Positions 1,419 to 13,490 of a DNA stretch of 64,000 nucleotides are shown in pieces. Position numbers and translations under genes: made by a program. The stretch's first letter is position 1, and each line of letters begins with the position of its first letter. This DNA is from an uncultured Chroococcidiopsis sp. (GTDB lineage: Bacteria > Cyanobacteriota > Cyanobacteriia > Cyanobacteriales > Chroococcidiopsidaceae), in contig CAXTYC010000017.1 of the NCBI GenBank assembly GCA_964248365.1, positions 32,001 through 96,000 of the forward strand, given 5' to 3'. The notes under the pieces are model-generated. The model did no database searches. It saw only the letters and a list, made by a program, of their open reading frames with translations, and was not told the origin of the DNA.

Positions 1419-1432
1419 AGTACAAATGTACT
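1419..1432. promoter_or_regulatory. Putative cyanobacterial LexA box
   Basis: AGTAC-AAAT-GTACT matches RGTAC-N4-GTWCB, in the divergent intergenic region. Confidence 0.65.
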
Positions 1433-8018: not shown

Positions 8019-8044
8019 AAAGTCCGCCCCTGCGGGCTTTTTTT
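8019..8044 (+). terminator. Rho-independent terminator of the porin gene
   Basis: AAAGTCCGC-CCCT-GCGGGCTTT followed by a T run. Confidence 0.8.
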
Positions 8045-8112: not shown

Positions 8113-8266
8113 TATAGCAGGGATTCGGGAGTAGCGCGAAGACAAACGCGGAGGTTTCCTCCGCGCAGAACGAGGTAAGAGAGGGAGTAGGAAGTAGGGT
8201 AAGAAGACTTGTAACAATTGTCTTCTAGTAAATTGTCTTGTCCTAATCTATCTACTTACTGCTATA
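8113..8266. mobile_element. MITE-like repeat with TATAGCAG...CTGCTATA inverted ends
   Basis: 8-bp terminal inverted repeats; the right part recurs at 8761-8844 and a related copy lies at about 50976-51112. Confidence 0.55.
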
Positions 8267-8410
8267 CCACCAAAGCTTTTTAATTTTCTGGCTCCAAATT
8301 GGGCGCTTTTTGAATTCCCTCCTGACACCTTTTTGTCACATTTGTCTAGAAAACTAGGATCGCCAATGGTTACTTCTACTCAAGCCTCACCCCCTTACCT
8401 CTGCTCACGA

Positions 8411-8799
8411 TACGTAAACGACTTCAATCTACAGCAGCGAACTTATCGGGTGTATGTCCAGGCTGACGCGCATCGCTCTAATCCTGTAGATATTTGCATC
8501 TACGTGCGTTCTGCCAACAATCAGGGGATTTTCGCTGACTAAAGCGACAGTGGAAGCGGCACAAGAGCGTCTCAGACCGATTCTAATGACGGTTTTTTCT
8601 CTTATTGGGTTTTTGGCTACTGGTAATTGCCAAAGCAGGCGCACAGAGCCGACAATCTCTAGCAACTGCTGTCTTTGGTGGTTTGCTTGTCTCTACTTTC
8701 TTAAGCTTATTTGTCGTGCCAGTTTTGTATATAGTGTTTGGAAATATCCGCAAGCGCTTTGAGAGAAAGGAAGTAGGTCAAAAGTCTTGTAACAATTGA
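8411..8799 (+). pseudogene. RND efflux permease (AcrB family) remnant
   Basis: Fragments in several frames: YVNDFNLQQRTYRVYVQADA, EAAQERLRPILMT, ATAVFGGLLVSTFLSLFVVPVLY; internally deleted and frameshifted. Confidence 0.85.
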
Positions 8800-9090
8800 C
8801 TTATAGTAAATTAACTTGTCTTCATCTATCTACTTACTGCTATACAAGCTGCAAAAGTGTGTTTTTCCTTAATGCGGTTGATGGTTTGAAAAATTGAATT
8901 TTAACAGCGGCTATACAAGCAAGCTGTGCGATCGCTTTTGGTGTTGAATTGGAAAATATAATAATGTCTTGCCCTAAAAGTCACGTTTTAATACTTGTAG
9001 ATTAAAATACTACTCATCCAAGCTTAGCAATTAAGCCCAGGAAGCTGGATAACTGCACTTTTCTATAGAGAAGACTTGGAGGACAGCTAT

Positions 9091-11031
9091 ATGCCTAATG
9101 ACAAGCGTTTCCTTCGCTCCAAACGTCTTCGCGCTTTGCTATGGTACACCGCTGATGGTAAGTGCCAAAGATGCGGTTGTGAATTGCCAGATAACTTTGA
9201 TGCTGACCATATAATTCCATATTCTATTTGCAAGCAAACCAACTTTCATGAAATGCAAGTATTATGTGAAAAATGTAATAGGGAGAAAGGCGCGATGCAA
9301 TTGAGAAAACATCAAGAAGAAATGCTACAAATTTGTGACCAAATTAAAGCTGGAGTAAGTAGCGTTAAAACTATAATTGCCAGCGTCACTCCAGCAGGTG
9401 GTAAAAGCGTATTAGCAGTAATTGCTGCTGCTCGTCTAATTCCAAAAGTAGCTGATGCCATCTGTTGGATCGCACCACGTCAATCACTTCAGAAACAAGC
9501 AGAAGAGGCTTTTGCAGATGGCAGATATAGGAATTTTCTGAAGCACCATTGTGTGATTCGAGCGGCAACAAACGAATATAATCCATGTCGAGGTTATGAA
9601 GGCTACGTTACGACTTATCAAGCATTAAATGCTGATCGAAGTACTCGTATTAACGCTCAAGAATTTGCTAGAAAGCGATATATTTTATTTTTAGACGAAG
9701 TTCATCATATTGAACTGGGTAGCCCAACCCATGAAGCTATTCAGCCACTAGTAGACCACGCAGCAATTTTGATTTTAGGCAGTGGCACTTATGAACGTGG
9801 CGACGGCAAGCGGATTGCCTTTTTGCCTTATCAAGAAGTTTCGGGCGGAGTCACTCTTAACCTTGAAAATTTCAATCAGCCTGATATTGCAGTAATTCGG
9901 TATAATCGCCGCGATGCCTTGGTGGAAAAGGCTATCATTCCCTTACATTTTCAACTTTGGGATGGTCACGCCCAATGGATAGACAAGGAAGGAGAATCTC
10001 GTACAATTGAAAGTTTAGCAGAAGCTGGCGATGACACAGAGGATGGTCTGTACACAGCTCTTAATACACAGTATGCGTTTGAGTTATTGGGAGAGTGCCT
10101 CGATCACTGGAAAGCTCACAGAGAGTTTAACAGACGAGCCAAAATGTTGGTAGTAGCAGCTAACATTTCCAGTGCGAACCGTTATCTAGAGCGGTTAAAA
10201 GATCTTGGCGTTATGGCTGCGATCGCTACCAGTGCTGACAGCAAAGACGCAAAGAAAGCAATTGAGCGTTTCAAAACTCACGGTAAAGATGCAGTAGATA
10301 TTTTGGTGACAGTAGCAATGGCATACGAGGGATTGGATGTACCCGCCGTAACTCATATTGCTTGCTTAACCCATATTAGAAGCGCTCCTTGGATCGAGCA
10401 AATGGTAACGCGAGCAGCCCGTGTAGATCGTGGTAATGGCGCTTTAGACTACGATCACCAACTCGGCTTCATTTATGCTCCAGACGATCGGCTATTTCAA
10501 GAATGCATTGCTAGCATCCAAGCAGAACAAGAACCATTTTTAAAAGAACGACAGGAAAAACTGCGTAGTGAATCAAGTAGTTCTGGTAGCGAACAAAAGG
10601 AATATTCGACATTTGCTAACGCCATCATACCTTTGCTTTCTGCCGCAACTCGTGAAAGAGCAAGTGGTATAAACGGCGAAACTCTAGACTATGAAGAAAC
10701 TCAACGCATTAGGACTGCAATGGAAAGTGCTGGATTACCTGGAATTAGCCCTATCCAGTTTAAGCGAGCGTGTGAAATTTATAATTCTTATCAACCAATC
10801 AGTGACATTCCTGCCCAGTTCCGAGATCCAACCCCTAGCGAAACTGAAGATAAACTTAGGCAATATATCGAAAACCACAACCGAAAGTATGAAATACATA
10901 ATCAGCTAAAGTACGGAACCCTTAACAAAGAAATTAAGACTCGATTTGGCAAAGGTCGTGAACACATGACCATAGAGGAATTAAAGCGCGTCTGGGCATG
11001 GGTGCAAGAAAAATATCCTATCGAGGTATGA
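9091..11031 (+). CDS. HNH endonuclease domain fused to an SF2 (ResIII/DEAD-like) helicase
   Basis: N-terminal CQRC...DADHIIP...LCEKCNREK; Walker A TPAGGKS, Walker B FLDEVHH, motif III SGT, motif V MAYEGLDVP, motif VI QMVTRAAR; GGAGG (9078-9082) precedes ATG 9091. Confidence 0.85.
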   Translation: MPNDKRFLRSKRLRALLWYTADGKCQRCGCELPDNFDADHIIPYSICKQTNFHEMQVLCEKCNREKGAMQLRKHQEEMLQICDQIKAGVSSVKTIIASVTPAGGKSVLAVIAAARLIPKVADAICWIAPRQSLQKQAEEAFADGRYRNFLKHHCVIRAATNEYNPCRGYEGYVTTYQALNADRSTRINAQEFARKRYILFLDEVHHIELGSPTHEAIQPLVDHAAILILGSGTYERGDGKRIAFLPYQEVSGGVTLNLENFNQPDIAVIRYNRRDALVEKAIIPLHFQLWDGHAQWIDKEGESRTIESLAEAGDDTEDGLYTALNTQYAFELLGECLDHWKAHREFNRRAKMLVVAANISSANRYLERLKDLGVMAAIATSADSKDAKKAIERFKTHGKDAVDILVTVAMAYEGLDVPAVTHIACLTHIRSAPWIEQMVTRAARVDRGNGALDYDHQLGFIYAPDDRLFQECIASIQAEQEPFLKERQEKLRSESSSSGSEQKEYSTFANAIIPLLSAATRERASGINGETLDYEETQRIRTAMESAGLPGISPIQFKRACEIYNSYQPISDIPAQFRDPTPSETEDKLRQYIENHNRKYEIHNQLKYGTLNKEIKTRFGKGREHMTIEELKRVWAWVQEKYPIEV

Positions 11032-11052
11032 CTATAAATCAGACTCAATTAT

Positions 11053-11066
11053 AGTACAATAGTACT
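11053..11066. promoter_or_regulatory. Putative cyanobacterial LexA box
   Basis: (T)AGTAC-AATA-GTACT(A), perfect inverted half-sites between the helicase stop and the next ORF. Confidence 0.65.
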
Positions 11067-11134
11067 AAATAGTTAATTCCTGACCAATATGGCTGCTGAT
11101 ACAGGGACTTGGCTGATGTAGTTAGCCTAGAAGT

Positions 11135-11905
11135 GTGATGATTTGTAGAACACTTGTGAAATCAAACATTGCCAAGGTAAGAACAGTAACGGTTGGTGAA
11201 GCAGGGGATCTCGCAGCTCCTCCAGGTTCTCAACCTTGGGCGATCGCTGTGCGACTGCAAATTCAATCTCTCCTCAAGGACAATGCTAGCAGCGTCAAAC
11301 ATCTGCAAACCTGGCTCAAAGGCATGGAGGAATATGCTGGATATCGCCAGTTAACCGATGAAAACGGTAAATTGTTTAGCTCATATGCTGCATTTTGTCA
11401 AGCTAAACCACCTTGGGGGCTTGGCTATCCTCCAGAGGTAATTGACCAGATTCTTAAGGAACTGGAGTTATTTCAAGCAGAGCAGAGTGATGAAGAAGAC
11501 AAGCAACTTAAGACTTGGGGAAATTTAGAGGGGTATTTACAGAGGTTTTCTAAGCTGGTTCAAAATTGTCCTGATAATCAGCCTATTAATGCAAGCAAAA
11601 TTAAGCAAGTATTAAATATTGGGCGCAGCAAAGCAGACCTTTGGCGAAAACGGTGGGTGGATTTGGGATGGATGGAAAAATCTGCAAATGGAGAGCGTGG
11701 CTATTACCAAATTACCGAGGAGGGGCGGAAAGTTGTAAAAGAATGGTTAGAAAAAGCGCCATCTGGTAGTACAAATGGCGAATTATGGCTAACCATTCCT
11801 CGTTGTAATTCTAAAAAGGCAGCACAGAAGCTGATTGAATCTTTAGAAGTTGACCAACTCCAAGAACTTTACAACCTAATTGGAGAATCACTCAATCAGC
11901 AGTAA
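11135..11905 (+). CDS. Hypothetical protein with probable winged-helix DNA-binding domain
   Basis: 256-aa ORF; INASKIKQVLNIGRSKADLWRKRWVDLGWMEK...YYQITEEG resembles a wHTH; start uncertain. Confidence 0.7.
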   Translation: MMICRTLVKSNIAKVRTVTVGEAGDLAAPPGSQPWAIAVRLQIQSLLKDNASSVKHLQTWLKGMEEYAGYRQLTDENGKLFSSYAAFCQAKPPWGLGYPPEVIDQILKELELFQAEQSDEEDKQLKTWGNLEGYLQRFSKLVQNCPDNQPINASKIKQVLNIGRSKADLWRKRWVDLGWMEKSANGERGYYQITEEGRKVVKEWLEKAPSGSTNGELWLTIPRCNSKKAAQKLIESLEVDQLQELYNLIGESLNQQ

Positions 11906-11956
11906 CAGCAGTACTACAAAAGTAGCATCTAACCACCTGTTCAATCTTTGCGTTTC

Positions 11957-11976
11957 CCTGGGGTTTAAACCCCAGG
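11957..11976. terminator. Perfect 20-bp palindrome between convergent genes (terminator- or REP-like)
   Basis: CCTGGGGTTT-AAACCCCAGG. Confidence 0.5.
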
Positions 11977-11993
11977 CTTGCGTCGAGTGCGGT

Positions 11994-13490
11994 TCAAAAA
12001 TTCAACAACTGGGCTGTCTGCTCAGGTTTTACCAAAGTATTCGCACACAAAATACCCGACGCAGCCACAGCCGGAACCCCAATTCCTGGCATGGTGCTAT
12101 CTCCGACACGGTACAAACCAGGAATGGGAGTGTGTGAACTCGGAAACATCCCCTTACCTGCTGCAATAGCTGGACCATAAGTGCCTTGATAACGTCGCAG
12201 ATAGTAAGCATGAGTCAGCGGTGTGCCAATTAATTCCAACACGACACGCTGACGAATATCTGGAATAATGCGTTCTAAGGCACGGTATAGGGATTGCGAT
12301 CGCTCCTGTTTCTTCTGCTGATAACCCTCATCTCGTTGCCAATTGCTGTATGGTTCTAATGTATAGGCGTGAACAACATGATGACCAGGCGGTGAGAGAG
12401 TGCGATCCCAGACGGAAGGAATGGAAATCATACAGGTATTACCTGGTTCTGTAATATCCTTTTGGGCATCATGCACCACCACGTGATGTCCTGTCAAATT
12501 TTCTAAATTCTCTGCTTTTATGCCCAAATGTAGATGCATAAAACTATCAATAGCTGGTGTGGCAACAGCCTGTTGATATAATGTTGGTACTTCCGCTAGC
12601 AAATTGTTATAGGTATCCCAAATTGTGGCATTAGAAATCACAATTGGAGCTTTGAGGATTTCACCCTGACGTAACTTTACACCCGCCACCTTGCCAGATT
12701 CCAGTAAAATTTGGTCTACATGAGTGGACAATCTTAGCTCACCACCCCAACGTTGTAAACCGCGCACTAGAGCATCAACAATTGCCCCGCTTCCTCCGAT
12801 TGGGTATTCAACTCCAACATGAGAGCGTTCGCCCAACACAAAAGCAACCTCTGGGGCGATCGTACCGTGAGCTTTTAGACCTGAAAGTAAAAAGCATTCT
12901 AGATCAATCAGTCGTCGCACCCAAGGATCGCGTACTTCCCGATCCATGACTTGTCCTACTGAACCTTGGATCGTACCCAGATGAGGCAGCATTTTCACCA
13001 GCGATGGTAAATAGCTTTTGAGTAAAACCGGAATTAGTTGCCAATCTGCTCTCAAAGCTAGTGTAGGAATTCCTTGTAAAGCATCGTATAGCGGTAACAA
13101 TCGTTTGATAAATCGCTCCAGTTCGCTAGCACCTAAAGGAGTAATTTGACTGACTGCTTCTAGATAACGCTCTTGCTGACTATAAACAGGAAAAGTGCCT
13201 TCTGGAAAGTGATAATGTCCCATTGGGTCATAAGGTACAGCTGGGAGTACTTCTCCTAGTACCTCAAGCACTTGTCGCAGGGGATTGCGACTGCTGGGGT
13301 CAATCAAACCACTGTAAAAAGAGGGACCAGAATCAAATATAAATCCTCGCCGTGAGAAACTATGCGCCGCACCCCCAGCGATCGCATGGCTTTCACAAAC
13401 AATCACTCGTTTGCCATAACGAGACAACAAAGCAGCAGCGGTTAAACCACCGATTCCGCTACCAATTACAATAACGTCACTATCATACAT
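11994..13490 (-). CDS. FAD-dependent oxidoreductase, phytoene desaturase/carotenoid isomerase (CrtI/CrtH) superfamily
   Basis: GSGIGG Rossmann motif, FDSGPS, YPIGGSGAIVDAL, GDSTMPGIGVPAVAASG. Confidence 0.88.
   Translation of the reverse strand: MYDSDVIVIGSGIGGLTAAALLSRYGKRVIVCESHAIAGGAAHSFSRRGFIFDSGPSFYSGLIDPSSRNPLRQVLEVLGEVLPAVPYDPMGHYHFPEGTFPVYSQQERYLEAVSQITPLGASELERFIKRLLPLYDALQGIPTLALRADWQLIPVLLKSYLPSLVKMLPHLGTIQGSVGQVMDREVRDPWVRRLIDLECFLLSGLKAHGTIAPEVAFVLGERSHVGVEYPIGGSGAIVDALVRGLQRWGGELRLSTHVDQILLESGKVAGVKLRQGEILKAPIVISNATIWDTYNNLLAEVPTLYQQAVATPAIDSFMHLHLGIKAENLENLTGHHVVVHDAQKDITEPGNTCMISIPSVWDRTLSPPGHHVVHAYTLEPYSNWQRDEGYQQKKQERSQSLYRALERIIPDIRQRVVLELIGTPLTHAYYLRRYQGTYGPAIAAGKGMFPSSHTPIPGLYRVGDSTMPGIGVPAVAASGILCANTLVKPEQTAQLLNF

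Follow-up and report, generated by a model that had tools for sequence, protein, structure and literature searches.

We analyzed a stretch of 64,000 nt from an uncultured Chroococcidiopsis sp. (assembly GCA_964248365.1, contig CAXTYC010000017.1, positions 32,001 to 96,000; the whole stretch is referred to as the window), in which two adjacent genes encode a fusion of an HNH nuclease module with a superfamily 2 (SF2) helicase (open reading frame 1, ORF1) and a partner protein with a winged helix-turn-helix (wHTH) domain (ORF2). The genes of the window likewise suggest a cyanobacterial origin. The coordinates of both genes and of the features around them are given in Table 1. A preliminary description had read this pair as a two-gene system composed of a 646-aa protein with an N-terminal Zn-binding HNH module, a complete SF2 helicase and a helical tail, and a 256-aa protein with an unfamiliar N-domain and a wHTH-like segment. 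For ORF1 this reading agrees with the Pfam domains, motifs and structure model described below, and for ORF2 with the absence of a family match and the presence of a wHTH fold. Only the start of ORF2 was refined to the ATG, where its homologs start as well.

Table 1. Features of the HNH-helicase/partner locus and its flanks (positions in the window)
Feature	Position	Strand	Basis
Intrinsic terminator of the upstream OprB porin gene (flank, outside the system)	8019..8040	+	
Dispersed repeats, 70-nt copies 8198-8267 and 8776-8845, around acrB fragments (flank debris)	8130..8850	not given	
HNH-SF2 helicase fusion gene ORF1, 646 aa	9091..11031	+	Pfam, AF2 model, dN/dS
Zn-binding HNH nuclease module, ORF1 residues 25-69	9163..9297	+	HNH_5 E 8.6e-9, column conservation
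Shine-Dalgarno-like purine stretch followed by an ATG (9295, M69), where HNH and helicase join	9280..9297	+	putative internal start
Sigma-70-like promoter for the partner (-35, 16 nt, -10)	11028..11055	+	consensus match only
Putative cyanobacterial LexA box AGTAC-N4-GTACT overlapping the -10 element	11053..11066		consensus fit, conservation
Partner gene ORF2, 255 aa from ATG 11138 (256 from GTG 11135)	11138..11905	+	AF2, fold match, clustering, dN/dS
Hypervariable wHTH segment (turn and recognition helix), residues 161-169	11615..11641	+	
Genome-wide ~50-bp repeat containing a 20-bp palindrome (11957-11976); not cassette-specific	11946..11995		

In ORF1 we found Pfam matches above the cut-off for HNH (residues 25-69), ResIII (69-234) and Helicase_C (345-445). 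The RecA1/RecA2 core (about 69-480) is followed by a disordered linker (482-510), a beta/helical subdomain (about 513-566) and a three-helix tail (582-641), and the C-terminus is helical in the AlphaFold2 (AF2) model as well (pLDDT 86.2, pTM 0.74). Residues C25, C28, D39, H40, C59, C62 and N63 of the HNH module agree with the columns of the family alignment, and the helicase motifs Walker A (K105), DEVH (202-205) and VI were found. Two deviations were observed: Walker A position 102 is A, as in 4 of the 122 proteins compared (104 of them have G), and most family members carry Glu where the HNH consensus has a central Asn. A Foldseek search with the motor of ORF1 gave RadD as the closest solved fold (E 2.3e-13, TM 0.40, 16-18% identity), and HsdR, XPB, UvsW and SauUSI as further structure matches, with HsdR, XPB and RadD all below 20% identity. 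At the junction between HNH and helicase a start at M69 could possibly yield an HNH-less helicase; of the 11 fused relatives that we checked, 10 likewise have a Met after the HNH.

ORF2 consists of an unnamed N-domain (about 20-115), the wHTH (129-207) and a helical tail (216-255). Its AF2 model is less well defined (pLDDT 80.7, pTM 0.46); the wHTH matches the fold of MepR (Z 9.2, rmsd 2.4, 77 residues aligned), and the matches of the whole model in structure searches are taken up by this part. No family scored above the cut-off in Pfam, NCBIfam, PHROGs, PADLOC or PDB sequence searches. The ESM Atlas returned unnamed, largely phage clusters (0.92, 0.90), with leads to DUF3102 and Plasmid_parti_N below 0.9. 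Relatives of ORF2 form 537 clusters at 50% identity, mostly found via the N-domain. As for a reader domain for modified bases, as expected of type IV restriction, weak matches to Mrr_N were all that the family showed (12 of 124 members, best E 3.6e-4). Non-cyanobacterial partners carry another helical domain in their middle part, the wHTH being the cyanobacterial version. The ratio of nonsynonymous to synonymous substitution rates (dN/dS) is 0.11-0.17 for the HNH and helicase core of ORF1 and 0.07-0.14 for the N-domain of ORF2, which indicates that both are real genes and that each is under purifying selection.

The pair is rare and patchily distributed. A full-length match was absent from all 40 relatives searched, and among 400 genomes of the phylum the helicase was observed in 1 and the partner in 2. 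In two other families 33 of 389 and 33 of 144 genomes, respectively, carry the partner. About nine different chromosomal contexts are occupied in cyanobacteria, some of them lineage-stable, for example after tRNA-Ser in Nostoc and Argonema. The analysis of coupling drew on 158 loci: 80 from genomes, out of 436 confirmed stretches, and 78 of viral origin, out of the best 80 among 108. Of these, 15 were left out for short flanks. Among the remaining 143 helicase loci, 33 have both the HNH and the partner (21 cyanobacterial and 12 viral), 104 have neither, 3 have the HNH only and 3 the partner only, so that 33 of 36 HNH-bearing helicases are followed by a partner, as expected for the two-gene system proposed at first. 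The HNH is not fused in 7 viral loci, where an ORF of its own encodes it and ends at the helicase start. The order HNH-helicase-partner was also found in all three HNH-bearing Streptomyces plasmid loci opened and in the actinophage PIS136, the only example among annotated phage records; the helicases of these loci are about 23-27% identical to ORF1 and their partners match the profile with E 1e-8 to 1e-25. Two helicases on alphaproteobacterial plasmids have neither an HNH nor a same-strand gene directly downstream, and a viral scan with a broad partner alignment gave no matches. A reverse scan of 25 metagenome partner loci revealed a helicase upstream in 11 and the HNH only in 1, with 6 loci being too short and 7 lacking an SF2 helicase. 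A profile of the ORF1 subdomain 524-568 matched most partner-coupled helicases but missed some of them, and it also matched 5 uncoupled ones; for this reason it is not a clean marker of coupling. In phylogenetic trees (the first computed without 7 short and 20 near-copy rows, the second with 63 rows) each of the two traits, HNH and partner, requires 8-9 changes. These findings support that HNH-helicase and partner form a genuine two-gene unit, which is both patchy and old.

Some loci show other arrangements. In L029:8656-12822 the order is partner-helicase-partner, followed by a gene for a 774-aa AAA/Schlafen-like helicase. Three phage contigs (L154, L155 and L157) carry two or three tandem helicase paralogs beside PhoH and DHH genes, with the partner absent. 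A near-identical partner lies downstream of a DUF3854/DUF3987 primase-helicase in one element and of an SF2 helicase in another (L201:4342-7547, L205:1-1590). In an Abditibacteriaceae genome (L044:8920-12002) a partnerless HNH-helicase directly follows a WYL-domain gene and two related genes, one of them DUF6745. Two internal deletions of the cassette were observed: one joins the HNH end of the helicase to the C-terminal part of the partner (P0186), and the other leaves a 426-aa helicase without RecA2, with tail and partner kept (L242:254-1534).

The partner is kept where the HNH is kept and lost where it is lost, and it outlasts the helicase: the helicase is broken in 8 of 24 cyanobacterial loci, while the partner is intact in all 22 where it is present. 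Such a pattern would also be expected of a toxin-antitoxin or addiction module, in which the HNH-helicase would act as toxin and the partner as antitoxin and autorepressor, with lone partners conferring immunity against addiction; a weak PADLOC match to PsyrA (E 0.002) points in the same direction. We consider this explanation improbable in view of the recognition helix and of the predicted LexA control of the partner, both described below.

Partners that are otherwise almost the same diverge in the wHTH, at its turn and recognition helix. In P0124 the N-domain is 98% identical and this region 70%, and a contig of run X4 fits the locus on both sides and diverges over 11622-11697. We fetched 60 partner loci from 73 matches in two families, of which 26 are coupled to a helicase and 34 are orphans without an upstream helicase, fixed in some whole genera (12/12, 7/7); orphans of this kind are what the addiction module would provide as immunity. 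The helices of 37 coupled and 27 orphan partners were compared, the former including 11 additional copies and the latter excluding 7 truncated or frameshifted sequences. We observed 25 helix motifs among the coupled partners and 4 among the orphans. At a background identity of 80-90% the recognition residues are 39% identical in coupled and 100% identical in orphan partners. Disjoint pairs gave a ratio of nonsynonymous to synonymous differences (pN/pS) of 0.70 in the helix and 0.20 in the background for coupled partners (n = 14), compared to 0.07 and 0.31 for orphans (n = 11). Copies at the same locus carry different helices. The promoters are conserved (85-94% identity) even between copies whose helices agree at as few as 1-3 of 9 residues, so that the partner's own promoter is probably not the target, contrary to what an autorepressing antitoxin would require; nor do the orphans, which are frozen, track the helix variants of coupled partners as immunity factors should. 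According to these comparisons, the recognition helix appears to change fast only in the presence of the helicase and to be frozen in orphans, and this is the main new support for a role in conflicts. Homoplasy of the helix across clades was seen in one pair only, and we dropped this claim.

The orphan partners themselves are possibly domesticated regulators. Three sets of orphan clades (L232 with L276-L292; L241-L257; L258-L263) have genus-wide fixed, invariant helices, an Mrr_N-like wHTH gene is found close to one orphan clade, and one genus retains just a wHTH and tail of ~106 aa.

The promoter of the partner was predicted by consensus, and as 10 promoter matches were found in the region against 7.1 expected, it says little on its own. 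Its -10 element ends at 11055, inside the LexA-type box. The box fits the consensus RGTACNNNDGTWCB given for cyanobacterial LexA in PMC3091678. Its half-sites are kept, with a changing spacer, in four relatives (L016, L017, L209 and G177), and it is degenerate in L029. The own genome (5.58 Mb) encodes lexA and contains 7 perfect AGTAC-N4-GTACT sites, one of them before ssb; similar boxes precede lexA and ssb. The perfect palindrome is not enriched genome-wide relative to other spacers (7 versus 2-7), and the case for LexA is therefore based on position and conservation. In a second clade, where the partner gene overlaps the end of the helicase gene, all five tRNA-Ser loci examined carry a box upstream of the helicase, at a distance of 57-58 nt from its ATG. 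No box was seen in 14 other loci of this clade, from Microcoleus, Okeania/Dapis, Hormoscilla and Planktothrix (L030 being only partly examined). Of 10 genomes tested, all 6 that gave a LexA match also have the box, and it is missing from all 4 that gave no such match, a comparison between kin that are not independent and for which genome completeness is not given. The features by which a LexA-regulon gene would be recognized, namely a 14-bp predicted box, its overlap with the promoter, its conservation and a lexA gene in the genome, were all found, which supports a predicted control of the pair by LexA in two layouts and is in line with the link to DNA damage suspected in the preliminary description. 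As the partner would be repressed in both layouts, a positive subunit that the system requires is more plausible than an antitoxin; in the clade studied here the partner alone has the box, and an antitoxin repressed while its toxin is made seems unlikely. In RNA run X19 short contigs cover both genes, but this RNA library may hold DNA, and small shares of five RNA runs were searched.

Further LexA-type boxes were noticed. In the own genome a perfect one precedes, by 52 nt, the gene of a YADD-motif protein of 467 aa (G000:C24:41752-43200), which by reading its sequence alone has the look of a retron-type reverse transcriptase. Another lies upstream of a 401-aa ORF (G000:C7:46026) that we take to be tyrosine-integrase-like. 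A second perfect AGTAC-N4-GTACT in the window (1419-1432; G000:C17:33419) has a response-regulator-like ORF on one side and a divergent 333-aa ORF on the other.

The reading we favor, with a confidence that stays short of even, is that the pair is a nuclease-translocase of phage or plasmid type that some cyanobacteria have retained in their chromosomes, aimed by its partner, gated by the SOS response to DNA damage and used in conflicts with phages or other mobile DNA. The wHTH of the partner would bind a DNA site, its N-domain or tail would recruit the helicase, and ATP-driven translocation would bring the HNH to nick or cut. No methyltransferase adjoins the pair in the window, and among 18 cyanobacterial loci one was found at a single locus, about 5 kb away and with its own restriction endonuclease; with no methylase accompanying the pair, the host would be protected by LexA, which would repress the partner alone in this clade and the whole operon in the tRNA-Ser clade. 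DNA damage, for example by prophage induction or phage replication, would switch the system on, so that rival mobile DNA is attacked or the cell is killed, and diversification of the helix would follow changing targets. A bolder version, which we regard as unlikely, is that of a methylase-free restriction machine: an HNH-SF2 translocase aimed by an HTH protein with a strain-swapped helix, in which LexA instead of methylation would spare the host until damage or prophage induction. On this account cyanobacteria would have swapped the ancestral middle domain for a winged helix and would repeatedly have retained the lone partner as a fixed regulator.

Several observations weigh against a role in conflicts. 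A test of HNH/partner coupling with independent pairs was not significant (3-4 pairs, p 0.25), and some of the broken helicases may be assembly errors. Four Okeania/Dapis loci have nearly the same helix (8-9 of 9 residues), the pN/pS of the helix stays below 1, its pS is raised as well (recombination), the helix positions were picked after the variation had been inspected and the orphan set is mostly composed of two clades. In four genera the pair occurs although no LexA match was obtained, so LexA gating cannot be the sole safety. Among 116 neighbor proteins at 18 cyanobacterial loci, taken as raw counts, one type II restriction-modification pair was the only one that looked like a whole defense system; the remaining PADLOC matches are, by reading, generic kinase, ABC, cyclase or TnpB domains, and NACHT, AAA and WYL neighbors were seen at three loci. 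Phage copies are found among RecT/Sak4, replication-initiator, DnaB and terminase genes (106 selected proteins), and in 14 viral loci with a partner a replication initiator follows the partner in 6 and RecT/Sak4 is near in 6. In 4 of the 7 long-flank metagenome loci without an SF2 gene, a primase/helicase gene lies upstream of the partner.

The scarcity of defense neighbors and the position of the family within phage replication modules would be explained if the pair were an accessory of phage replication or recombination, with a RadD/UvsW-like helicase processing forks or branches, the HNH as nickase and the partner as loader or origin binder, domesticated by cyanobacteria as an optional SOS repair module. 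RadD as the closest solved fold, an SbcC-like ATPase cluster in 47 loci, partners downstream of primase-helicases and HNH-less helicases that are syntenic in Nitrospirales all fit such a role, and LexA boxes suit repair as well as defense. However, it leaves the diversification of the helix in coupled partners only without explanation, and the pair is rare, patchy and often broken, unlike core repair genes. We regard this accessory role as the main, though rather unlikely, alternative; if it were true, the pair would be a new optional SOS gene pair in cyanobacteria. Whichever applies, the locus belongs to an unnamed nuclease-helicase-partner family spanning cyanobacteria, actinobacterial plasmids and uncultured phages, to which it adds the LexA link in two layouts and the contrast between coupled and orphan recognition helices. 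Two handles for testing follow from these: the predicted SOS switch, and 25 naturally occurring helix variants that can be set against the frozen orphans as controls. If the helix does set the cleavage site, the system would represent a new regulatory, non-methylation control of self and non-self and a retargetable ATP-dependent nuclease.

With respect to known systems, no PADLOC model matches the pair over its full length (short matches to the motor or HNH only), and the Ham models give no match at E 0.01, so that the initial impression of a system without a recognized name stands. We found no description of the pair in the literature, supplementary candidate-system tables and most subscription journals lying outside the search. 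RadD (YejH), XPB and UvsW repair helicases are the best Foldseek matches of the motor. As a RadD, ORF1 was rejected (23.7 bits against the NF053632 cut-off of 720, in addition to the low identity), and we know of no RadD described with an HNH or a coupled partner. Type I restriction (HsdR) and the type IV enzyme SauUSI also combine an ATP translocase with a nuclease. HsdS is the specificity subunit of type I restriction enzymes, and a separate, fast-changing specificity subunit of this kind serves as our working analogy for the partner. Type I or III restriction-modification was rejected, as the cassette has no cognate methylase or HsdS gene and the match spans ~95 motor residues. The helical tail of ORF1 may resemble that of SdrA/Rv2917-type actinobacterial SF2 helicases, which are not known to have an HNH or a partner. 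The name SdrA/Rv2917 occurs in one table row of PMC2587704.

Closest in anatomy are the nuclease-NTPase defense systems (Hachiman, Gabija, AbpAB, Azaca) treated in 10.1101/2025.07.10.664194. These consist of 1-3 genes with a nuclease and an SF2 helicase, sometimes an accessory protein of unknown function, and no methyltransferase. The pair likewise combines a nuclease with a helicase in a small operon (1-3 genes) that lacks methylase and Cas genes. Hachiman is reported to respond to DNA damage. Unlike these systems, the pair has an N-terminal HNH, a variable-helix HTH protein as second gene and is common on phages; the term HNH is absent from the main text of the paper on these systems. Hachiman itself was rejected, as it would need, on that description, a separate PD-(D/E)XK HamA beside the SF2 HamB, and the partner here is a wHTH protein. 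Hna, as described in PMC13381803, is a single 845-aa DinG-like SF2 helicase with a C-terminal PD-(D/E)XK nuclease and thus also joins nuclease and SF2 helicase on one chain; it was rejected for the N-terminal HNH, the ResIII/RadD-like core, the helical C-terminus and the second gene of our pair. Nhi and Nhi-like proteins are listed as superfamily 1 (SF1) in 10.1101/2025.07.10.664194, while ResIII, Helicase_C and DEVH place ORF1 in SF2.

Finally, we examined the flanks. The porin terminator, acrB debris and repeats reported upstream are all present, the debris being the C-terminal part of acrB. The downstream palindrome, which had been read as an insertion border, exists as well, but it belongs to a repeat spread across the genome (BLAST against the own genome gives as many as 30 hits at a position) and hence does not mark a border. 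The presence of the family at about nine chromosomal sites, with no integrase seen adjoining the cyanobacterial copies, could suggest a selfish homing-like cassette, in which the partner would pick the target site and the HNH-helicase would start gene conversion or insertion. Similarity to relatives upstream of ORF1 starts near a HIP1-like site (window 8928-8935) in three different contexts, which would suit such a cassette; as HIP1 occurs once per kb, this border may be due to chance. Copies at the same locus with different helices and the single cassette copy in the own genome argue against homing as well, and no empty site was found in the relatives checked, where the porin and desaturase genes are not adjacent and both flanks vary, so that we consider homing very improbable. 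The 3' flank of the FAD-dependent desaturase-like gene (window 11994-13490) varies among the relatives examined and may therefore be an insertion hot spot.

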